A stretch of 35,620 bases of DNA, from positions 1 through 35,620 of the forward strand of contig MFPH01000031.1 of NCBI GenBank assembly GCA_001782645.1. Reading direction: 5' to 3'. A program made the translations under genes and the position numbers. The notes below the pieces were generated by a model that saw only the letters and a list, made by a program, of their open reading frames with translations, was not told the origin of the DNA and did no database searches. This document shows, one piece after another, positions 6 to 35,269 of the stretch; the stretch's first letter is position 1, and each line of letters starts with the position of its first letter. Source of the DNA: Candidatus Levybacteria bacterium RIFCSPLOWO2_12_FULL_37_14. GTDB lineage: Bacteria; Patescibacteriota; Microgenomatia; Levybacterales; UBA12049.

Positions 6-590
6 TTGGGAACTAGCAAATCTAAATCACAACCGGCTGCTCAGATTTCCGTAACCCCAGTACCTTCGCCTGCCGAAGCCTCAGCGAAGGAGGGGGACCC
101 AACCGCAAATTGGAAAACATATACGGTTACAAAATTAGGAATTGAATTTAAATATCCGCCTAATTTTTCCCCAATTGCAATTTTTGATAATGAATTATTT
201 CCAATCTCTTTTACGGACAACTCGAATACAAAACATCGTCTATCAACGTCTCCTGATATTTCCATTAAGGTTATTCCTATCGTTTCAGGAGATGATTACA
301 AAACAACCTTAATTAAGGATGTTATTTTTGCTGGCAGTGGCATGCACCCTAAATCTTTTGTCGAATTTTCTTCAAAAACGATTGGCGGAAATATGGTTTA
401 TTATATTAAAACCGGCCTATTTGAAGGAGTCCTCTCCATTAATTACTACCTTGTTAATAAAAATCAGGTTTTTGCTTTTAATCTGACCTCCAGTCCGGTT
501 GATTGGACAAATCCTAATTTTAAACCTGAAGAGGATCTCCTGAATTTGAATATGCAACAAATTCTTTCCACCTTCAAATTTACTAATTAA
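6..590 (+). CDS. Secreted or lipoprotein-like hypothetical protein, probably 5'-truncated by the window edge
   Basis: 194-codon ORF whose frame stays open to the window start. It has a Pro/Ala/Ser linker (VTPVPSPAEASAKEGDP) followed by a globular part with no motif I recognise. Confidence 0.6.
   Translation: MGTSKSKSQPAAQISVTPVPSPAEASAKEGDPTANWKTYTVTKLGIEFKYPPNFSPIAIFDNELFPISFTDNSNTKHRLSTSPDISIKVIPIVSGDDYKTTLIKDVIFAGSGMHPKSFVEFSSKTIGGNMVYYIKTGLFEGVLSINYYLVNKNQVFAFNLTSSPVDWTNPNFKPEEDLLNLNMQQILSTFKFTN
63..97 (+). repeat. GC-rich palindromic element copy inside a CDS
   Basis: ccttcgc (63-69) pairs with gcgaagg (84-90) and is followed by aggggga. It has the same ends as the intergenic element at 15965-16007 (ccttcgc...gcgaagggggg). 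Confidence 0.5.
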
Positions 591-4437: not shown

Positions 4438-5157
4438 ATGGCTGTCCATAAAAAAACCGCAAGCGCTGAAAAAACTCCCGCCTTCACTAAAGTTTCGGCG
4501 GACAAGGAAGCACAGGGTGATAAAAAGTTAGACCAGCAGAAGCCCGTGGTCGTTTCGGATACCGTAACGGAAACAATTGTAATTGAACAGGCAGTTTCGC
4601 AAGCAGCTAGTTCGGAAATGCCCGCAGAATCCCCTGCAGAAAATCCTTTAACTGATTTTAAAGAAAAAATGGCTGAAGAAGAATTGCTCGTTACGGATGA
4701 TTCTCAAAAGAAGAATTATATGTGGCCCATACTTCTCATTTTTGCCATGGTAATACTTTTGCTGGTGGGAGTTTTTCTTTACAAATATGGGATAAATATT
4801 AAAGATAAGGTCAATGTAACAACGCCTGTTCCTTCTCCGACCGCTGCTCCGCAACCCACAAAGGTAGTAGATTTGATCAAGTATGAAATTGAGATACAGA
4901 ATGGAAGCGGGGTCAGCGGGGAAGCATCAAAGCAGGAAAGCAGTTTGAAGGAAGAGGGTTTTACGATTTCATCAATCGGCAACGCGGACAATTCTGATTA
5001 TACGCAGACTGTTATAAAAGCAAAAGCAGAAGTTGATAAAGATTTTATAGCCAAACTTAAAAGCGTTTTGAGTAATTCATTTACGGTGGGCGAAGCAGAG
5101 ATTTTGCCAGACGACTCCTCATCTTCTGTGGTTGTAATTATCGGAACTAAGAAATAA
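4438..5157 (+). CDS. Membrane-anchored LytR_C (LytR cell-envelope-related C-terminal) domain protein
   Basis: 239 aa: acidic N-terminus, one TM segment (WPILLIFAMVILLLVGVFLY), a Pro-rich linker, then IEIQNGSGVSGEASK...EGFTISSIGNAD...TVIKAK, typical of LytR_C. Confidence 0.7.
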   Translation: MAVHKKTASAEKTPAFTKVSADKEAQGDKKLDQQKPVVVSDTVTETIVIEQAVSQAASSEMPAESPAENPLTDFKEKMAEEELLVTDDSQKKNYMWPILLIFAMVILLLVGVFLYKYGINIKDKVNVTTPVPSPTAAPQPTKVVDLIKYEIEIQNGSGVSGEASKQESSLKEEGFTISSIGNADNSDYTQTVIKAKAEVDKDFIAKLKSVLSNSFTVGEAEILPDDSSSSVVVIIGTKK

Positions 5158-7297: not shown

Positions 7298-7445
7298 CTA
7301 GAATAGGTATGCGATCCGCCAACTCTTACTTTTCGCCTTATGCTGCTATTCGTAGCGCGGCTCAAAGAGCGAGTACGGGCGGACGTAAGAAACTGTAATT
7401 CCAAATTAAATTTGGAAACAGTTTCTAACGAAGGTGGTGATATAA

Positions 7446-7571
7446 ATGGCGAATTCAAAAAAAGACTCAATTACTCTGACAAAAAACGGATTTATCGCAG
7501 TATTGCTTTTTGTTGTTGCGGTAACAATCTTGGCAGCTTACGCTTATCTAAATTATTCAGTGGTTAAATAA
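7446..7571 (+). CDS. Unannotated 41-aa single-TM peptide (MANSKKDSITLTKNGFIAVLLFVVAVTILAAYAYLNYSVVK)
   Basis: Strong Shine-Dalgarno GAAGGTGGTGA ending 6 nt before the ATG. Below the 60-aa cut-off of the ORF track. Basic N-terminus plus one hydrophobic helix. Confidence 0.6.
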   Translation: MANSKKDSITLTKNGFIAVLLFVVAVTILAAYAYLNYSVVK

Positions 7572-7605
7572 AATGGCAAAATAGTCATAATTCCGAAGAT
7601 TACTT

Positions 7606-8556
7606 TTAATTGTTATTAATTGTGTTCTTTGTATCTCCATTCATTTGTCTAAAAGCTTTTCTTTTTCGTAAAGATTCAGAAGTCGCATATGGTGACTTTC
7701 TGTCCTCGTATTCTCCTTCCAATACGTATGACTTGTCTCCGTATTTATTATAATAAAACAAACCAATATTATCTTCTCCGTCGTACAGCCATGTGTTACA
7801 TACCTTGCTTTTTATGAATTGTTCCTCGGAAGATAATTTATGCGTAAAGCCTGCGGAAGCAATTTTATCTATTAATTCCCTGTATTTATTTAACAGAGCA
7901 GGATTCAATTCCGATTCGGCAAGCGACAATGCTGCAAGAAATACTTCAAGTCGGAGCTTATCAGAGACATTTTCAGGTAATGTTCTTTGATAGTGTTGAT
8001 AAAGAGCGTGAAGGCTAAGCCAATTTGAAGCATCCGTAGGGAATAAATTTGCTTTCCAAAATTCCAGAATAAGCGCTTTGCTTTTTTCCTCATTAGCAAT
8101 AGTGTTTTTACTATCTGTTAAAGATTGCTTGTCCGATCTCTTTCGCAAACCGATAATCGTTCCTTTAGATCTTCTGATAGACTCTTTTTCAGGACTGAAA
8201 TAATCCTCAGGAATTCTGTGCCATTCCGGACGATCCTTTCTGCTTCTGTAAACAGCATTTCTTATCTGTTCTCTATTAAGGATTGGCTCCGTGATGAGGA
8301 GTATTTCCCAAACTGCTAATCCCCGTACGACAAAAGGCAATATCCTTTCGTAAACAGAGCTTTGTTTAACAACCTGTGATTTTTCTTTAGGTCCTGAATT
8401 CGCGGAAGCTATAATCAATTTTGTTTCCGGCGAATGAAGTAAGCCTTTGCAAGTCGGAACATGGGTGCCATCTTCACGAAGAATTAATGTTCCCTTGTTG
8501 AATGGATTCAGCATCCTGTTCGATCTCGTGACTATCCTGCTTTCTGTAGTTACCAT
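7606..8556 (-). CDS. Hypothetical protein (316 aa, orphan)
   Basis: Long ORF with no competing frame. No motif recognised. Confidence 0.65.
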   Translation of the reverse strand: MVTTESRIVTRSNRMLNPFNKGTLILREDGTHVPTCKGLLHSPETKLIIASANSGPKEKSQVVKQSSVYERILPFVVRGLAVWEILLITEPILNREQIRNAVYRSRKDRPEWHRIPEDYFSPEKESIRRSKGTIIGLRKRSDKQSLTDSKNTIANEEKSKALILEFWKANLFPTDASNWLSLHALYQHYQRTLPENVSDKLRLEVFLAALSLAESELNPALLNKYRELIDKIASAGFTHKLSSEEQFIKSKVCNTWLYDGEDNIGLFYYNKYGDKSYVLEGEYEDRKSPYATSESLRKRKAFRQMNGDTKNTINNN

Positions 8557-8929: not shown

Positions 8930-9457
8930 ATGGAAAAAATATCCAGTTTTCTTTTTTCAAACACTAAACTTTCCTGGCTATGGTTTTTTGTGAGAATTTA
9001 TGTTGGATGGACGTGGCTTACTGCGGGATGGGACAAGGTAATAAATCCCGTGTGGGCAGGGGACAAAGCGGGAGTAGCCGTATCCGGTTTTTTAACTAAA
9101 TCATTGACCAAAACAACAGGCGCGCATCCGGATGTGCAAGGATGGTATGCGTACTTCATAGAAACAATAGCTCTGCCTAATTCCGAGATTTTTTCCTATG
9201 TGGTTTCCTTTGGGGAGTTTTTTGTAGGGATTGCTTTAATTTTGGGCGCAGTTACAGGAATTGCAGCATTTTTCGGAGCATTTATGAATATAAATTATCT
9301 TTTCGCAGGAACTGTTAGTACAAATCCGGAGTTATTACTTCTTGAAATTTTCATAATGTTAGCATGGAAAACTGCAGGATGGTATGGTTTGGATAGATTT
9401 ATCTTGCCGCAAATTACAGCCTGTAAGTCGGGTAAAGCATCTAAAAAGCGCAATTAA
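8930..9457 (+). CDS. DoxX family membrane protein
   Basis: 175 aa with four TM segments. The N-terminal WLWFFVRIYVGWTWLTAGWDK is typical of DoxX/DoxD-like proteins. Confidence 0.75.
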   Translation: MEKISSFLFSNTKLSWLWFFVRIYVGWTWLTAGWDKVINPVWAGDKAGVAVSGFLTKSLTKTTGAHPDVQGWYAYFIETIALPNSEIFSYVVSFGEFFVGIALILGAVTGIAAFFGAFMNINYLFAGTVSTNPELLLLEIFIMLAWKTAGWYGLDRFILPQITACKSGKASKKRN

Positions 9458-10017: not shown

Positions 10018-10042
10018 CATTTAGAGGAGGTGATTTGGAGTG

Positions 10043-10183
10043 ATGAATTTCGGAAATTGGGGAAGCGGGTATTATATGATGAATTCCGGTTTGGGGATTA
10101 GTATGTTCATCTTTTGGCTGATTATTTTAATCGACCTAATTCTTTTGGGAATTTGGTTATGGAAGCAAATAAATAAAAAATAG
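10043..10183 (+). CDS. Unannotated 46-aa small membrane protein (MNFGNWGSGYYMMNSGLGISMFIFWLIILIDLILLGIWLWKQINKK)
   Basis: Extended Shine-Dalgarno GAGGAGGTGATTTG (10024-10037). The start is the ATG at 10043, or the GTG at 10040. One TM helix. Confidence 0.6.
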   Translation: MNFGNWGSGYYMMNSGLGISMFIFWLIILIDLILLGIWLWKQINKK

Positions 10184-12835: not shown

Positions 12836-12861
12836 ATTAATACATGAGGAGGTGATTTGAA

Positions 12862-13029
12862 ATGAAAAAATGCTTAACAATGTGGCAAGTCTGGGCGGGG
12901 GTGGCAGCTATATTGGCAATAATGCTTATTTTTAAAAGCAATAGTCTTTTCTCAATTTTACCTTTCGCAGCTTTCCTAATCTGTCCGTTAATGATGATTT
13001 TTATGATGAAAGATCACAAAAAGCATTAA
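12862..13029 (+). CDS. Unannotated 55-aa DUF2933-like small membrane protein
   Basis: Extended Shine-Dalgarno GAGGAGGTGATTTGAA directly upstream. The C-terminal CPLMMIFMMKDHKKH resembles the CPLMHxFMH signature of DUF2933 (from memory). Confidence 0.6.
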   Translation: MKKCLTMWQVWAGVAAILAIMLIFKSNSLFSILPFAAFLICPLMMIFMMKDHKKH

Positions 13030-14152: not shown

Positions 14153-14653
14153 GTGAAAAAAATTGCAATAATTTTTATCGGTTTATTTCTGATAATTTTG
14201 GTGATTATACTTATGAAAAGTTTTTCTATCAGCATAAATTCAAAAAGTACAGGCAATTCCAATAAGGCGCTTAATCCAAGTCCAAGTAGTAGCAATAACT
14301 TGAAAGCAAAAGAAAATACAGAGGGTTCGGTTACTGTTGCAATTACTCAATTAAATTTAACAGATAACTCGCCTCGCTTTGCGGGCGAAGCGGGTTCATC
14401 GACCTTGGATTTTGAAATAGTGTTGGACACTCACTCCGGAGTATTGGATGCTGATTTGATTGGCGTATCCGAACTTGTTGATGATCAGGGGGAAATATAT
14501 AGACCAATAGCGTGGGAGGGGGATGGTCCGGAAGGGCATCACCGCAAGGGAGTTTTAAAATTTAAACCCATTCTGCCTAAGCCTAAGTCTATTGAATTGA
14601 AGATAAAGAATGTTGGCGGAATTCCCGAAAGAAGTTTTAAATGGAGCATCTAA
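14153..14653 (+). CDS. Secreted or anchored hypothetical protein with a W-E-G-D-G-P-E-G-H-H motif
   Basis: GTG start, signal-anchor MKKIAIIFIGLFLIILVIIL, and a beta-rich C-terminal domain. Carries the GC-rich element at 14368-14395. Confidence 0.65.
   Translation: MKKIAIIFIGLFLIILVIILMKSFSISINSKSTGNSNKALNPSPSSSNNLKAKENTEGSVTVAITQLNLTDNSPRFAGEAGSSTLDFEIVLDTHSGVLDADLIGVSELVDDQGEIYRPIAWEGDGPEGHHRKGVLKFKPILPKPKSIELKIKNVGGIPERSFKWSI
14368..14395. repeat. GC-rich element copy inside a CDS
   Basis: ctcgcctcgc-tttgcg-ggcgaagcgggt has the same 10-nt and 12-nt arms as 1799-1820. It encodes SPRFAGEAG. Confidence 0.7.
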
Positions 14654-15043: not shown

Positions 15044-15937
15044 ATGGATCTTTTAATTAGCGCATCATTTGTAGCTTCGTTTCTCGCAGGAATTGCAGCG
15101 CTTTTTGCGCCCTGCTGCATTACAGTTTTACTGCCAACTTATTTTGCCTCCATTTTCAAACAAAAAACTACAGTTTTTTTAATGACTTTTGTTTACTTTC
15201 TTGGTATTTTATCTATTTTTCTTCCCCTTGGTCTGGGAGTAGCTCTGTTTACTCAAATCTTCAGTCAGTATCACGACACAGTTTTTCTTATCGGAGGGAT
15301 ATTTTTAGTCTTTTTGGGATTAAGTTTATTGCTGGGGCAGCAATTTTCTCTGCCTTTCAGAGTTCATCCGAAACTTCCAAAAGAGGATTTTATCTCAGTT
15401 TATATTTTAGGTATATTTTCTGCAATCGCTACCACTTGCTGCGCGCCGGTTCTGGCAGGAGTTTTAACTCTATCGGCACTTCCGGGATCGTTTATCTTGG
15501 GAGGCATTTATACCCTTGCTTATGTATTAGGAATGGTTTTGCCTTTGTTTATTATTGCTTCATTTTTGGATAAAATTGATTTTACCAAAAAGTTTTTCGC
15601 TTTTCGGAAAAGTTTATCCTACAACATTTTGGGTCAAAAAATTCACATTACTTTTGCTAATCTCCTGTCGGGCTTAACGTTTCTAATTTTAGGAATAATT
15701 ATTATCTATTTTGCAAAAACAGAACAGCTCACATCGCATTCTCAATATCAAGTAATGCTAAATATTTATCTGACAAAATTCATCAAACTTATAAGTGGTT
15801 TTGCCACATTAGTTCCCGAAGTTGTTTGGGCTTTGATTTTTGTCGGCATAGCGCTATTTATTACTTATTTTGCAATTAAAAAATTTAGGTCTCTAAAGAA
15901 AAGGGGGCTTGTCCCTCCGAAGCCCGATCCTAAATAA
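15044..15937 (+). CDS. Polytopic membrane protein, DsbD/CcdA-superfamily-like with vicinal cysteines (copy 2)
   Basis: LFAPCCITVLLPTYFA and TCCAPVLAGVLT, collinear with 12002-12835. It has an extra C-terminal tail, RGLVPPKPDPK, encoded by a GC hairpin. Confidence 0.6.
   Translation: MDLLISASFVASFLAGIAALFAPCCITVLLPTYFASIFKQKTTVFLMTFVYFLGILSIFLPLGLGVALFTQIFSQYHDTVFLIGGIFLVFLGLSLLLGQQFSLPFRVHPKLPKEDFISVYILGIFSAIATTCCAPVLAGVLTLSALPGSFILGGIYTLAYVLGMVLPLFIIASFLDKIDFTKKFFAFRKSLSYNILGQKIHITFANLLSGLTFLILGIIIIYFAKTEQLTSHSQYQVMLNIYLTKFIKLISGFATLVPEVVWALIFVGIALFITYFAIKKFRSLKKRGLVPPKPDPK
15905..15925 (+). repeat. GC hairpin forming the 3' tail of the CDS
   Basis: gggctt (15905-15910) pairs with aagccc (15920-15925). 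The loop contains tccctcc, an anti-SD-like sequence. Confidence 0.45.
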
Positions 15938-15964: not shown

Positions 15965-16007
15965 CGAAACCCTCCTTCGCATAAAGCTACGGAGGGCGAA
16001 GGGGGGT
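15965..16007 (+). promoter_or_regulatory. GC-rich palindromic leader element able to sequester the Shine-Dalgarno of the redoxin gene
   Basis: accctccttcgc (15969-15980) can pair over 12 bp (one G-U) with gcgaaggggggt (15996-16007), which contains the Shine-Dalgarno. Alternatively ccctcc (15970-15975) pairs with ggaggg (15991-15996). Confidence 0.55.
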
Positions 16008-16015
16008 GATTTGAA

Positions 16016-16690
16016 ATGAAGAAAACTGGAACTTTAGTAACTTTGGGTACGGGAATAATTGCGCTGATAGTCATTCTTAGTAATTACAATATCAAATTAA
16101 GCATGGATAAAAAAGAAGACTCGGTTTCTGTAAATCAACAAGTTTCTCCTGCGGTTCAAGAATCACAAGATGATTCTATGGCAAGCATGCATGGGGGAGC
16201 AGCTCCCGGCGCGAATGCAGCAGTTTTTAATAGCTTAATTGGCACAATAGCTCCTGATTTTACATTGGAAACATATGACGGAGATAAAATTACTTTAAGT
16301 AGCTTGAAAGGCAATAGCGTAATTTTGTTTTTCAATGAAGGTTTAATGTGTTATCCGTCTTGCTGGAATCAGATTGTTGCTTTTGGCAAAGACGCGGAAT
16401 TAGGCAAAAAGGCGGTTCTTTTGAGCATTACGGCTGATCCCAAAAATGACTGGAAATCCGCTTTAGATAAAATGCCGGAACTGGCTCAGGCAACAGTGCT
16501 TTTTGACAGCAATAGACAAGTTTCAGCAAAATATGGAGTCCTAACTCTTCCCTCATCAATGCACAAGGGACAGTTTCCGGGACATAGCTATGTAATTGTT
16601 GATAAGAATGGAATTGTTAAATTTGTTCAAGACGATGTCCAGATGGCAGTCAGAAATAAAGAACTGTCTTCCGAAATCGACAAGCTGTAA
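16016..16690 (+). CDS. Membrane-anchored thioredoxin-fold protein (redoxin / AhpC-TSA / TlpA-like) with an atypical CYPSC motif
   Basis: APDFTLETYDGDKITLSSLKGNSVILFFNEGLMCYPSC matches the redoxin N-terminal layout. N-terminal TM segment. Confidence 0.75.
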   Translation: MKKTGTLVTLGTGIIALIVILSNYNIKLSMDKKEDSVSVNQQVSPAVQESQDDSMASMHGGAAPGANAAVFNSLIGTIAPDFTLETYDGDKITLSSLKGNSVILFFNEGLMCYPSCWNQIVAFGKDAELGKKAVLLSITADPKNDWKSALDKMPELAQATVLFDSNRQVSAKYGVLTLPSSMHKGQFPGHSYVIVDKNGIVKFVQDDVQMAVRNKELSSEIDKL

Positions 16691-16699
16691 ATTCTTATT

Positions 16700-16903
16700 T
16701 TAACCGCAACAAGATTTTTTGGCAGGAACGTTTTCCTTTTTGTCAATGTAATTTTTTGCTCCTGCATTAAACTGATCTTTGCAGTTTTCTGAACAGAAAG
16801 AATATTTTGTGCCTCCAAATTCTGAAGAAAACTCAGTTTTTTTATCCAGTTTCATTTTGCAAACCGGATCAGTAACTTTTTGTGAAAATGAAAATCCAAA
16901 CAT
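16700..16903 (-). CDS. YHS/TRASH-type metal-binding domain protein with a C-terminal SCCG
   Basis: DPVCKMKLDKK...YSFCSENCKDQF is the YHS pattern. Shine-Dalgarno GGGAGGTGATTT lies upstream on the minus strand. Confidence 0.8.
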   Translation of the reverse strand: MFGFSFSQKVTDPVCKMKLDKKTEFSSEFGGTKYSFCSENCKDQFNAGAKNYIDKKENVPAKKSCCG

Positions 16904-16953
16904 AATAAATCACCTCCCTTGCCTCGCCGCAATTTTAATGTAGGCGGGTTTCG
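16904..16953 (-). repeat. Leader element homologous to 15965-16015, filling the whole copB-YHS intergenic gap
   Basis: The minus strand reads cgaaacccgcctacattaaaattgcggcgaggcaagggaggtgatttatt-ATG. It aligns with cgaaaccctccttcgcataaagctacggagggcgaaggggggtgatttgaa-ATG. Confidence 0.6.
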
Positions 16954-16954
16954 T

Positions 16955-19036
16955 TCAATCAAGCTTAGTTCTTCTTAAGAGTAAAGCATTGAAAACAACA
17001 ATAATTGACGATGCGCTCATTAATAATGCTGCCCATTCTGGTCGGAGTAGGATGCCAAATGATGGGTAAAGTATTCCTGCCGCTATTGGAACGGCAAAGG
17101 TATTATATCCTGTTGCCCAAATAAGATTTTGCACCATTTTCGTATTGGTTTTGCGGCTTAAAGAAATTGCCTTAACTACATCCATCGGGTCATTTTTCAT
17201 TAAGACTATGTCTGCCGATTCAACTGCAACATCTGTTCCTGCGCCTATTGCAATTCCGACATGCGCTTGGGTAAGGGATGGGGCATCATTAACGCCGTCT
17301 CCAACCATAGCGACGATATTTCCATCCTGCTGCAATTGTTTAATTTTATTAACTTTATCTTTTGGTAATACTTGAGCAAAAACAGTGTCCATATTGAGTT
17401 GTTTTCCTGTTTCATTGGCCACATCAGGGGTGTCTCCTGTAAGCATGGCTATTTTTATTCCCATATCATGCAGTCTTTTGACAACTGTTTTTGATTCCTC
17501 TCTGATGATGTCCGCAAGGAGAATTATTCCGGTTAATTTATTATTTATGGCAACATAGACCGGCGTAGCGGCTTTGATTTTTGAGTCAGGAATTATGAAT
17601 TTTGAATCATGTATCCTTAGGTCTTTCATTAAAGTTATGTTTCCTACAATAACAAACCTATTATCGACAATCCCTTCTGCTCCACGTCCTGGATAAGACT
17701 TGAATTTCTTAACGGTTGAAATTTTTAGTCCTTTGTTTTTTGCGTCTTGAACAATCCCTTTTGCTATAGAATGTTGTGAGTTTAATTCAACTGCCGCTGC
17801 TAATTTTAATAATTCTTGATTCTTGATTTTTGATTCTTGATTCATCATTACGTCTACTACTCCAAATTCTCCTTTTGTCAGTGTTCCTGTTTTATCAAAT
17901 ACCACATAACTGATTTTTCTGGCAATTTCCAAACCCTTCATATCTTTGATTAAAATACCATTTTTTGCCCCAAGAGTAGAAGTAATCGTAGTGACTGTGG
18001 GTATGGCAAGACCTAACGCATGGGGACAAGCAACCACAATTGCCGCAACTGCCACAGTTGCCGCAAAAACAATACCCTCAGGCAAAATAAATGCCCAGGT
18101 AACAAATGAAATAGTTCCGGCAATAATCGCTACGAAAAATAAGACACTGGCCGCTCGGTCAGCCAGATGCTGAACATTGGGTTTTGAACTTTGGGCTTCC
18201 CGGATTAACTTCATAATTTGGGAAATTGCCGTATCAGCCCCGGTTTTGGAAACTTCAATCGTTAAGGCTCCATCCTGATTGATAGTGCCGCCAATTACTT
18301 TATCGCCTTTTTTCTTAGTGATAGGCCTTGATTCTCCGGTGACCATAGATTCATTAACAGAACTTTCGCCATCTATTACTGCTCCGTCAACCGGAATTTT
18401 TTCTCCCGGCTTGACTAAAACTTTGTTGCCCATCACCAATTGACTGGTTTTAACATCCGTAATATTTCCGTTTTGAAGAAGATGAGCGGATGGGGGAATA
18501 AGCTTGGCTAATTCAGACAGCGCGCCTGTTGCTCCTCTGACAGCTCTCATTTCCAGCCAATGTCCTAGCAGAAAAACAGAAATAAGAGTAGATATTTCCC
18601 AATATAAAGATTCTTTGGGGAAGAGGAAAGTTGCTGCAACCGAAAAAGTATAGCCCGCTGTGATTGCAAAAGCTACCAGAGTCATCATTCCCGGATTTTT
18701 ACTGAATAATTCACCTTTTGCAGCTTTGAAAAAAGGTATTCCGCCAAAAAAGAAAATAAAAGTGCCCAAAACAAAAAGTAGGACTTGAATGCCTGAAAAA
18801 TTCAGATTAAAATGCAGCCATTTTTGGATATTGGGGGAAAGCAGCATGGTCAGTAAAACTGCAGGCAGGGAGATAAAGAAACGCTTTCTGAAATCTTTTT
18901 CCATTGAACTGTGGTCTTCGCGTCCTTCCTCATGGCTTGAATTCATCGGGACAAGCTTCATTCCGCATTTGGGACAAATACCGGGTTGTTCACGTATTAT
19001 ATCCGGATCCATGGGACAGGTATACATTAATTCCAT
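16955..19036 (-). CDS. copB: P1B-type heavy-metal ATPase, CopB-like (CPH motif)
   Basis: 693 aa with [15 protein letters not shown] and TGES motifs, and CPH in the transmembrane metal site (VVACPHALG). N-terminal Cys-rich metal-binding domain YTCPMDPD...CPKCGMKL. Confidence 0.9.
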
Positions 19037-34063: not shown

Positions 34064-35269
34064 ATGAATTTGTCTGTCGGAATTGTTGGATTACCTAACG
34101 TTGGAAAGTCGACGCTTTTTAATGCGTTGTTGAAAAAGCAGACAGCTTTCGTCGCAAATTATCCTTTTGCCACTATTGAGCCAAATGTTGGAATCGTTCC
34201 TGTGCCGGATTCCCGTTTGGAAAAGCTTGCAGAAATCACCAAAATTGAGGCTAAAATGGCTGAATTGCCTCCGATAAAACCCGCAACAGTAAATTTTGTG
34301 GATATTGCAGGACTCGTAAAAGGAGCAAGCGAAGGCGCAGGATTGGGAAACAAATTTTTGTCACATATCCGCGAAGTTTCAATTATTGCCCATGTGGTTA
34401 GGGTTTTTACTGATGCCAATGTTATTAGATATGAAGATGAAGAGACCCGCCTTCGCCAAAGCTCCGGCGGGCAAGGGGGAAGTGTGGGACCCAAAGAAGA
34501 TTATGAGGCAATCGAAACAGAATTAATTTTAGCTGATTTGCAAACTATCCAATCGGCGCAGGGAAAAGTGAAAAGATTTGCCAAGGAAACAGAAAAAACT
34601 GCGATTGAAAAATTATTTAAAGGATTAAATGAGGGGAAGCGGGCCTCGGAAATTGAATTAATGTCGGAAGAGCAGGAATATGCCAATACGTTTTTTCTTC
34701 TGTCGGCCAAGCCGGAAATAATTGTCTTAAACGTGGAAGAAAAAGACTATAACGAAAAATCTATTGAATCTATTGCCCAAAAATATAAGGAGATGCTGAA
34801 ACCAGTTCAGCATGACAACGAGGGGAATACAGTTGTTATTTGCGCGAAAATTGAATCTGATTTATCAGAGCTTTCAGAAGATGAGCAAAAACAATATTTG
34901 GCAGATTTGGGCGTTAAACAATCTGGTCTTGAAAGATTGATAAAAAATGCTTATGCAACTTTGGGTTTGATTTCTTTTTTAACTTGCGGAGAGAAAGAAG
35001 TCAGAGCTTGGACCATTCGACGCGGTTCGACCGCTCTCATGGCCTCCGGCGAGATTCATTCGGATTTTATGAAGAAATTTATCAAAGCGGAAGTTGTTTC
35101 ATATCCTGATTTTGTAAGTTTAAACGGTCCCGCCCGCAACGACTTCGCTAGCTTGTCTAGCGTGTCGGGCGGGTGGAAAGCTGCGCGGGAGAATGGAAAA
35201 GCCCGCATGGAAGGCCGCGATTACATCATGCGGGATGGCGACGTAGTAGAATTCAAGATTGGGGTGTAA
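34064..35269 (+). CDS. ychF: Ribosome-binding ATPase YchF (Obg-like GTPase family) carrying two insertions
   Basis: GIVGLPNVGKSTLFNAL, FATIEPN, DIAGLVKGAS and a C-terminal TGS-like GEKEVRAWTI...DGDVVEF. At 401 aa it is longer than the roughly 363-aa length I recall for typical YchF. Confidence 0.92.
   Translation: MNLSVGIVGLPNVGKSTLFNALLKKQTAFVANYPFATIEPNVGIVPVPDSRLEKLAEITKIEAKMAELPPIKPATVNFVDIAGLVKGASEGAGLGNKFLSHIREVSIIAHVVRVFTDANVIRYEDEETRLRQSSGGQGGSVGPKEDYEAIETELILADLQTIQSAQGKVKRFAKETEKTAIEKLFKGLNEGKRASEIELMSEEQEYANTFFLLSAKPEIIVLNVEEKDYNEKSIESIAQKYKEMLKPVQHDNEGNTVVICAKIESDLSELSEDEQKQYLADLGVKQSGLERLIKNAYATLGLISFLTCGEKEVRAWTIRRGSTALMASGEIHSDFMKKFIKAEVVSYPDFVSLNGPARNDFASLSSVSGGWKAARENGKARMEGRDYIMRDGDVVEFKIGV
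34439..34480 (+). repeat. GC-rich palindromic element inserted in-frame in ychF (first insertion)
   Basis: cccgcc (34446-34451) pairs with ggcggg (34466-34471). The sequence aligns with the intergenic leader at 15965-16007, including a compensatory stem change. It encodes about EETRLRQSSGGQG. Confidence 0.65.
35129..35173 (+). repeat. 45-nt nested palindrome inserted in-frame in ychF (second insertion)
   Basis: cccgcccg (35129-35136) pairs with cgggcggg (35166-35173), and cgctag (35146-35151) pairs with ctagcg (35157-35162). It is exactly 15 codons (PARNDFASLSSVSGG) and starts on a codon boundary. Confidence 0.75.

Follow-up and report, generated by a model that had tools for sequence, protein, structure and literature searches.

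A short GC-rich segment within the ychF gene of a Candidatus Levybacteria contig, from the candidate phyla radiation (CPR), most probably belongs to a dispersed family of miniature, GC-rich repeats that form hairpins, akin to repetitive extragenic palindromes (REPs) and Rickettsia palindromic elements (RPEs); we put the probability of this reading at roughly 0.8. The DNA analyzed here (hereafter referred to as the window) is a 35,620-nucleotide stretch of contig MFPH01000031.1. It is AT-rich (37.6% GC), with a few sharp GC islands, and carries ychF as open reading frame (ORF) 34064-35269. At least 22 contigs, GCA_000990055.1 LBSY01000001.1 and Rifle aquifer assemblies among them, encode the identical YchF protein, and close YchF homologs carry the label Candidatus Levybacteria. 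The copy in ychF entered the gene secondarily and is read in-frame as a surface loop predicted to be disordered. Sequence comparison places sister copies in two intercistronic spacers near Shine-Dalgarno (SD) sequences and in at least two other coding sequences (CDSs), and indicates that the family is present in many bacterial phyla, with its base pairing conserved.

Local alignment of the ychF segment (GAGACCCGCCTTCGCCAAAGCTCCGGCGGGCAAGGGGG) with an intergenic segment of the window (GAAACCCTCCTTCGCATAAAGCTACGGAGGGCGAAGGGGG) yielded 33 identical columns out of 40, with five mismatches and two one-base gaps, for a score of 41, in line with the roughly 33 of 41 columns that an initial annotation of this DNA had counted by hand. 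The compensatory stem change reported there is also present, with CCCGCC/GGCGGG in ychF and CCCTCC/GGAGGG in the intergenic copy preserving the pairing. The alignment outlasted the shuffled GC-rich controls that had been proposed as a check: the best score of the ychF segment in 40 Markov-simulated windows was 26, and when the GC-rich intergenic copy was shuffled 5000 times by mononucleotide and 5000 times by dinucleotide type, the maximum was 25-26 and a score of 41 was never reached.

Smith-Waterman search of the window with the ychF segment as query returned matches at 4475-4510 (+) with a score of 37, at 16915-16950 (-) with 28 and at 61-96 (-) with 27, and a degenerate 28-position pattern matched the window four times against zero expected. 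A hidden Markov model built from five window copies gave E-values of 5e-8 to 3e-6 for them, and a covariance model recovered the same five at 36-55 bits, the next best match in the window reaching 11 bits. When 91 kb were scanned with the covariance model, the best other match (25 bits) was a nested copy in a relative. The contexts of the five full copies are unrelated: two copies lie in intercistronic leaders and three within CDSs, and both strands and different frames are represented. They are listed here with a partial copy and the ychF block that holds the first of them:

34444..34479, + strand: copy A, element core in ychF (covariance model 54.8 bits, E = 1e-11)
34430..34477, + strand: ychF block extra relative to orthologs, holding copy A (codon alignment with the relatives L008 and L007)
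15968..16004, + strand: copy B, intercistronic spacer between DsbD_TM and redoxin genes (covariance model 49.8 bits; flanking genes by Pfam)
15907..15923, - strand: partial copy, 3' half only, at the end of the DsbD_TM gene (by eye against the family consensus)
16920..16954, - strand: copy D, between copper P-type ATPase and YHS-domain genes (filled/empty comparison; Pfam)
4475..4510, + strand: copy C, N-terminal region of a LytR_C-domain protein, ORF 4438-5157 (covariance model 49 bits; Smith-Waterman 37; Pfam)
61..96, - strand: copy E, antisense inside ORF 6-590 (+) (covariance model 40.5 bits; Smith-Waterman 27)

Copy A has the stem CCCGCC/GGCGGG, the loop TTCGCCAAAGCTCC and a CAAGG tail, and is translated as TRLRQSSGGQG. 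Copy C is also in-frame (TPAFTKVSADK) and shows a compensated inner A-T pair (CAC...GTT), while the host ORF of copy E, which has no Pfam match, reads SPAEASAKEG across the element. Copy D (covariance model match at 16915-16950, 35.7 bits) is a 35-nt insertion between the ATPase stop codon (16955-16957) and a native SD, AGGGAGGTGA, with the downstream YHS-domain gene starting at an ATG at 16900 on the minus strand. The 17-nt partial copy (reverse complement GCTTCGGAGGGACAAGC) covers the last DsbD_TM codons, forms an inverted doublet with copy B and falls below model detection. No Rfam family matched the element in the window at the gathering threshold, and the window has no tRNA genes.

The ychF segment is not ancestral, as comparison with orthologs, likewise suggested in the initial annotation, makes plain. 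Among the 120 best YchF homologs, most of them 365-367 aa long, the insert is missing at this site in 117 and occurs in the window form only in the window protein, its 99% twin and the homolog P0002. The state of its own clade at this first site is IIR-E-GSVGP, with IIR-E-GS found in 57 of the 59 orthologs listed, and the window YchF has 15 residues more. Aligned with the solved YchF structures 2dby, 1jal and 8kie, it shows gap-opposite segments at two places, 14 and 15 residues long; the 13-14 extra residues estimated in the annotation are thus 14 relative to the structures and 15 relative to the clade. In nucleotides, positions 34430-34477 replace one Glu codon by 16 codons (YEDEETRLRQSSGGQG), a net gain of 45 nt, and codon alignment shows an empty site with 45 nt fewer in L008. 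In the L007 gene, whose protein is 76% identical, the insert is present too, and its loop houses another 30 nt (CCAGCCTTCGCTAAAGCTTCGACCGGCAAG) that make up a second, nested copy. The site of copy D is empty in the relative L140, where CTTGATTAA runs directly into AGGGAGGTGATTTATTATG, and the window has ACGAAACCCGCCTACATTAAAATTGCGGCGAGGCA between the same flanks. Because the L008 and L140 sites are empty, copies A and D are, on sequence comparison, secondary insertions without target duplication. At the site of copy B, the spacer of the relative L141 is 10 nt long and free of the element, and L140 retains just the 3' half of one, so that copy B is likewise not ancestral at its site, although a clean junction was not recovered for it. 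No target-site duplication was found at the four resolved junctions, and in 125 copies flank repeats were not obviously above chance, the chance level being a rough estimate. In an AlphaFold2 model of YchF (mean predicted local distance difference test (pLDDT) score 80), both inserted segments, including residues 123-140, have pLDDT below 50 and lie between confident core elements.

Judged by the sequence of the inserts, the same family entered YchF repeatedly at other sites in related Levybacteria:

L137 ychF, about residue 64: 33 nt, CCCTCCTTCGCATAAAGCTTCGGAAGGGCAAGG; the site, between AAA and ATG, is empty in three other genomes
L138 ychF, about residue 247: 30 nt of family sequence, CCCCACTTCGCTGAAGCTTCGAGGGGCAAG
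L139 ychF, about residue 352: 39 nt containing the family sequence CCCACCTTCGCTGAAGTTTCGGCGAGGCAAGG

At about the position of the window insert, the homologs P0029, P0075 and P0087 have a YQDE...RLPA...GG segment and the homolog P0017 has YEETTNVGPRLQSP; such segments may be diverged forms of the insert. A 21-nt insertion encoding ASSGQAP (e.g. GCAAGCTCAGGGCAAGCTCCG) is common among Levybacteria YchF proteins, being present at about residue 119 in the L137 and L138 genes and in 21 of the 120 orthologs; it could be what an old GC-rich element left behind after erosion. Harboring several insertions in one essential gene is not peculiar to YchF, since the isoleucyl-tRNA synthetase gene of a low-GC genome (L160, 235-3441, - strand) contains at least two element-derived segments (…SAEALAKA…, …SSSAKASEDK…).

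The second extra segment of the window YchF corresponds to an in-frame 45-nt insertion at 35126-35170 (+) with the sequence GPARNDFASLSSVSG. It is predicted to fold into a very stable hairpin, CCCGCCCG/CGGGCGGG (-34.2 kcal/mol, z = -4.4), whose inner stem is GCTAGC/CTAGCG, and is missing in L007, L008, L137 and L138. More distant YchF orthologs have 'GPARN...' peptides at this site, and the 30-nt family copy of L139 sits exactly there. The insertion looks like a member of a different hairpin family in the same permissive loop.

An alignment of 122 copies defines the modal unit as yCCkCC-TTCGCyrArGCTwC-GGmGGr-CAAG, 30 nt from the first stem base to CAAG. Its stem, yCCkCC/GGmGGr, has 6 bp and encloses a conserved loop, TTCGC-yrAr-GCTwC, that includes an inner G-C/C-G pair; a short CARG tail follows. 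Four 5' stem bases left unspecified in the first search pattern proved conserved and paired with the 3' side nonetheless. Paired cells amount to 94.2% of this alignment; in shuffles the figure is 87.6%, and shifting the 3' partner by 1-3 columns lowers it to 28-49%. Changes on both sides are seen in five of the eight pairs, and the observed covariation was reached by none of 500 shuffles. In an independent metagenome sample, the two variable stem positions covary with Fisher p = 3e-18 and 3e-24, and the four doubly compensated haplotypes are all frequent (39, 27, 21 and 12 copies). Window copies C and D show compensation at the inner G-C/C-G pair as well. The apical tetraloop follows host GC content, TAAA being present in 56% of copies at <45% GC and in 10% at >=55% GC. 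Single-sequence folding was uninformative for copies A, C, D and E, copy A, for instance, being predicted to fold no more stably than its shuffles (z = -0.35). Because single-copy folding energy is unremarkable, support for the stem comes from covariation over many copies. The five window copies, the empty and nested sites, and covariation across more than 240 copies together uphold the view put forward in the initial annotation of a mobile or copied structured element that can reside in a leader or, in-frame, in a CDS.

On the strand of the element the flanks are rich in purines, with a 5' consensus of A/T followed by yCC and a 3' tail of C-A-(A/G)-G. In a sample retrieved with the tail unspecified, the bases following the stem were C (75%), A (60%), A/G (45/35%) and G (59%). 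Native AAGG coincides with the end of the element at the copy D SD, at RNase P RNA J12/13 and at the empty ychF site. AAGG was considered as a fixed insertion target and rejected, given the empty L137 site between AAA and ATG and the presence of CAAGG in 3 of 120 listed copies found with the tail-free pattern; the early impression arose because the first search pattern enriched for AAGG.

The search for copies had first been envisaged within this genome, but the family is not private to it. At least 120 loci in species-representative genomes match the 28-position pattern, in unrelated flanks and at GC contents of 0.33 to 0.75, and at least 120 metagenome contigs match a second pattern with the tail unspecified. 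Labels among the matches listed include Patescibacteria (~28 loci), Bacteroidota/Chlorobiota (~35), the Planctomycetes-Verrucomicrobia-Chlamydiae group with Omnitrophota (~22), Proteobacteria (~17) and Acidobacteriota (9), together with Armatimonadota, Cyanobacteria, Cloacimonadota and Bdellovibrionota; a Rickettsiales label appears on one locus only (L116). One match (L125) lies on a contig of a Nanoarchaeia metagenome-assembled genome (MAG) labeled Candidatus Nanoarchaeia (DPANN archaea), which could be either a true archaeal copy or a binning error. Because IMG/VR yielded only 8 loci, the element is not mainly phage-borne. Neither 5,426 E. coli genomes nor the PLSDB plasmids contained a match, and an origin from a universal housekeeping sequence was rejected accordingly. 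Searching Rfam 15 at E <= 1 with six loci that hold the element matched only the host RNase P RNA and tRNAs and left the element itself unmatched. We found no earlier description of the element in the literature, in which subscription journals were thinly covered, so that a prior account may exist.

Copies lie on either strand and in every reading frame, and their placement relative to ORFs differs among groups:

Patescibacteria: 28 of 36 listed copies in ORFs of at least 100 codons, 23 sense and 5 antisense
Bacteroidota/Chlorobiota: 20 of 45 listed copies in ORFs of at least 100 codons, 9 sense and 11 antisense; most copies outside long ORFs
Other phyla: share in long ORFs varying by group; sense and antisense about equal

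Before grouping by phylum, overall orientation showed a 44:14 sense bias. Stop codons do not explain it, since an average of 2.4 frames are open in sense and 2.3 in antisense. At least 17 of the 23 sense copies in patescibacterial ORFs read P[SA]FAKA[TS]A[GD]K. Selection on the peptide better explains the bias, because it is limited to Patescibacteria and to one reading frame; on the same grounds, a reading of the bias as an RNA or transcription-coupled signal was rejected.

Stable-RNA genes form a second setting, seen in loci labeled Bacteroidota/Chlorobiota and in a few unlabeled or metagenome contigs:

L017, 864-897: element at a mature tRNA 5' end
L036, 3861-3894: element at a mature tRNA 5' end
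L041, 2111-2143: element at a mature tRNA 5' end
L069, 24-57: element at a mature tRNA 5' end
L083, 5963-5996: element at a mature tRNA 5' end
L093, 5829-5862: element at a mature tRNA 5' end
L117, 3289-3320: element at a mature tRNA 5' end
L051, 388-419: element at a tRNA 3' end (as also in L019 and L220)
L105, 2160-2192: element at a tmRNA 3' end
L025, 4881-5299: RNase P RNA gene with the element in P12
L030, 5924-6367: RNase P RNA gene with the element in P12
L119, 5195-5581: RNase P RNA gene with the element in P12
L198, ~9187-9369: RNase P RNA gene carrying the element twice, in P3 and in P12, in the opposite orientation

In the Bacteroidota-type loci the end of the element lies 0-2 nt from the mature tRNA 5' end, three of these tRNAs being the tRNA-Ala of an Ile-Ala pair, and the same 0-2 nt separate it from the 3' ends of a tRNA and of the tmRNA. 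Degenerate partial copies accumulate upstream of tRNA-Met in L041. The RNase P RNA carriers are Chlorobiota, Bacteroidales and other MAGs, and the 3' half of the element (GGCGGGCAAGG) coincides with the conserved P12-3'/J12-13 of the RNase P RNA consensus; for the P12 copies of L025, L030 and L119 the coincidence is with the conserved GGCGGGyAAGGGUGAAA of that consensus.

Most copies are singletons. Of 15 adjacent pairs in the metagenome contigs listed, 7 are convergent and 0-68 nt apart, and inverted adjacent doublets were found in GC-rich contigs. Tandem runs occur in L028 (61-nt period) and L029 (37-nt period), with intervening sequence that is identical or very short; the L028 run (7386-7953), in a Bacteroidetes MAG, has the element within its 61-nt repeat and lies beside a tRNA-Arg gene. 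In a Flammeovirgaceae MAG (L026), four copies are contained in a longer repeat with conserved flanks and carry an A-T compensated stem, CCCACC/GGTGGG.

We interpret these observations as the signature of a mobile hairpin. The repeats would be selfish or neutral DNA, copied or moved in trans by some enzyme that reads the folded hairpin through its conserved loop and a stem recognized by structure only. The likeliest substrate would be single-stranded DNA, as in REP/RAYT or IS200/IS605-type HUH transposition, by which no target duplication is left either. The analogy suggests itself because the stem appears to be read as structure and the loop as sequence, with no duplication; mobilization in trans by a hairpin-recognizing protein, with a single-strand HUH-type process as the best analogy, is nonetheless a tentative proposal to which we give somewhat less than an even chance. 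The copies seen today would be survivors of selection, retained in-frame and stop-free in protein loops, in spacers, and at the apical hairpins or ends of stable RNA genes. Survival inside genes would be easy because the unit length is divisible by three and the frames are mostly open, and copies adjacent to SDs may incidentally alter translation or mRNA stability.

The closest known systems share several of these properties. REPs and REPINs are repetitive extragenic palindromes mobilized by RAYT tyrosine/HUH transposases (PMC3116915, PMC3733652). Like them, the element is a short (20-40 nt), GC-rich, imperfect palindrome that is dispersed, has some copies in inverted pairs that may be comparable to REP doublets, shows no target-site duplication and is likely recognized as a folded hairpin; REPs, too, are occasionally found inside genes (PMC3733652), and can lie between cistrons, with a possible effect on mRNA. 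Rickettsia palindromic elements are ~100-150 bp long and confined to Rickettsia (PMC10969869; Ogata et al. 2000 via PMC10969869, PMC3733652). They resemble the element in being palindromic repeats of a reduced, AT-rich genome, found in non-coding regions and in-frame in unrelated housekeeping genes, where they are translated as extra surface segments. The in-frame hosts of the element are YchF, the LytR_C protein, ORF 6-590 and the isoleucyl-tRNA synthetase of L160. Unlike RPEs, each family of which encodes a longer conserved peptide, the element measures 30 nt and occurs in many phyla, and no sequence relationship between the two was seen. The element works like REPs/REPINs and RPEs, with its sequence constancy across phyla and its three-multiple unit length as unexpected features.

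Other short repeats are less similar. Miniature inverted-repeat transposable elements (Correia/NEMIS, RUP, ERIC) are 70-300 bp long, have terminal inverted repeats and target-site duplications, and derive from DDE insertion sequences (PMC10969869, PMC3184786). The element shares with them the status of a small non-autonomous repeat able to fuse in-frame with ORFs or to alter the expression of neighbors, but is a single 30-nt hairpin without duplication. Hairpin structure and lack of duplication also recall IS200/IS605, whose insertions lie next to a fixed short target word; the L007 nested copy and the L138 copy lie directly 5' of a CAAG in the target and copy D 5' of AGGG, and the empty L137 site, between AAA and ATG, has no such word. 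CRISPR repeats form regular arrays with unique spacers between them, whereas the element copies are dispersed singletons. Yeast mitochondrial GC clusters and cyanobacterial small dispersed repeats are reportedly GC-rich hairpins of ~20-50 nt. They occur nested, in coding and RNA genes, in AT-rich or compact genomes, and are lineage-restricted; M-type GC clusters of yeast show target duplication. The element resembles both as a tiny, nested, GC-rich hairpin and differs from them in hosts and sequences and, from the M-type clusters, in showing no target duplication.

A number of observations weigh against a REP- or RPE-like mobile repeat. No RAYT- or IS200-like gene was found beside the copies in the 2-20 kb read around each, nor any transposase ORF between the copy pairs in L253 or L160. 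Described REP superfamilies carry a tetranucleotide tag, GTAG or CGTC, left unpaired at one of their ends (PMC3733652), whereas the element lacks end tags and has GTAG only within its loop, on the reverse strand, when w = A (~55-60% of copies). REPs are species- or genus-specific, whereas the loop sequence of the element is conserved across phyla, and its copies in Patescibacteria, unlike REPs, are mostly intragenic. Such near-identity across phyla departs from what REP-like elements, as a rule lineage-specific, usually show, and needs either a very widespread recognizing protein, frequent horizontal spread or a cellular function. The enrichment exactly at tRNA/tmRNA ends and in RNase P RNA hairpins is strong, and the 23:5 sense bias of Patescibacteria comes with one favored frame; such patterns of site and orientation could reflect function or targeting in place of passive survival. 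Lastly, scanning 10 kb outside the window and 21 kb of the relative L008 with the covariance model found no copy.

There is also a bolder version of the mobile-hairpin reading, which we regard as less likely than not. The repeats might form a pan-bacterial class of 30-nt hairpins whose loop is held constant by one widespread protein (HUH/RAYT-like, a hairpin nuclease or recombinase, or an RNA/DNA-binding factor). Insertion would then be active, into single-stranded or hairpin targets such as tRNA ends, RNase P hairpins, the loop of the element itself and SD-proximal sites, and three-multiple length and open frames would be adaptations to the essential genes of gene-dense genomes such as those of CPR bacteria.

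The family could alternatively be a cis-regulatory RNA hairpin, a translational or mRNA-stability element at home in 5' leaders, where it would hide or present the SD, the ychF copy being an accidental or exapted duplicate. The initial annotation had described the intergenic copy as a leader element carrying an SD, and the SD itself is there: the 3' CGAAGG of copy B runs into GGGGGGTGA, 8 nt ahead of the ATG at 16016. An alternative helix of 12-16 bp pairing CCCUCCUUCGC with GCGAAGGGGGG is predicted to cover this SD (-22.6 kcal/mol, z = -3.1), copy D also lies directly on an SD, and copies in six further loci (L042, L054, L096, L099, L113 and L127) end in AAGG fused to (G)AGG with an ATG 5-9 nt on. 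The sense bias in Patescibacteria would fit as well. However, orientation is ~1:1 outside Patescibacteria, and copies in small genomes lie mostly inside CDSs, others being found in antisense orientation, within RNase P RNA or next to tRNA ends. The SD beside copy D did not arrive with the element, because L140, which lacks the element there, has that SD too; copy D moreover folds poorly (z = +0.5), and no Rfam family matches. The association of intergenic copies with SDs therefore stands, but a dedicated leader source does not, copy D having been inserted beside an existing SD and copy B being missing or halved in relatives. We consider a leader function unlikely as the basis of the family. 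A recurrent ribosome-binding context, GGAGGTGATTTGAAATG, a near-perfect extended SD at fixed spacing, is found at window positions 10026-10048, 12848-12870 and 16002-16024, and it is because of this common context that the 3' ends of copies B and D are alike beyond the element.

A function in stable RNA, as a processing, protection or protein-binding hairpin, or an origin in P12 of RNase P RNA, with the genic copies as by-products, is improbable too. It would account for the P12 copies in three loci, the P3 and P12 copies of L198, and the presence of the element at seven or more tRNA 5' ends, at least three tRNA 3' ends and one tmRNA 3' end, far above expectation from the small genome fraction involved, and it would be compatible with sequence conservation across phyla. 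These associations are nevertheless restricted to the Bacteroidota/Chlorobiota-labeled loci and the few unlabeled or metagenome contigs, E. coli genomes lack the element, which is hence not universal, and both orientations occur inside RNase P RNA. Apical loops simply tolerate self-folding hairpins, and many copies lie in ordinary CDSs.

Selection of a peptide module such as PSFAKATAGK, as opposed to a DNA-level element, is very unlikely. The use of one frame in at least 17 of the 23 patescibacterial sense copies, when a second frame is equally stop-free, speaks for it, but the ychF copy is read in another frame, giving RLRQSSGGQG, the orientation of copy E is antisense, neither copy B nor copy D is coding, and further copies lie in RNA genes and spacers. 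Covariation preserves base pairing and not amino acids, the inserted segments are predicted to be disordered, and the frame preference is better explained by choice of the least harmful peptide. Chance likeness of GC-rich islands in an AT-rich genome, or an ancestral ychF segment, has a negligible probability: the window does hold several other GC-rich islands and the folding energy of copy A is no better than that of shuffles, but a score of 41 against a maximum of 26 in 5000 shuffles, four pattern matches against zero expected, absence of the segment from 117 of 120 best orthologs and hundreds of copies elsewhere all contradict it.

If the mobile-hairpin reading holds, one 30-nt hairpin would explain many odd short insertions in conserved proteins of CPR/Patescibacteria and other uncultured bacteria (PSFAKATAGK, RLRQGYGGQ and antisense SLGEGG-type segments). 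The covariance model would let annotators flag such segments. It would also mark columns that are not homologous in alignments and phylogenies, and would account for spurious small ORFs and for RNase P RNAs of varying size. Near-constancy from Saccharibacteria to Acidobacteriota would be unexpected for REP-like DNA, and something must maintain it, while repeated insertion into one essential GTPase would amount to a natural experiment on how a protein absorbs insertions.

Two further GC islands of the window, both in CDSs, at 1789-1831 (in a GSDH-family gene) and 14368-14397 (in ORF 14153-14653), share ACCCGCTTCGCC...GCGAGGCGAG on the reverse strand. The covariance model gives them only ~11 bits, and they may represent a second, related repeat family.

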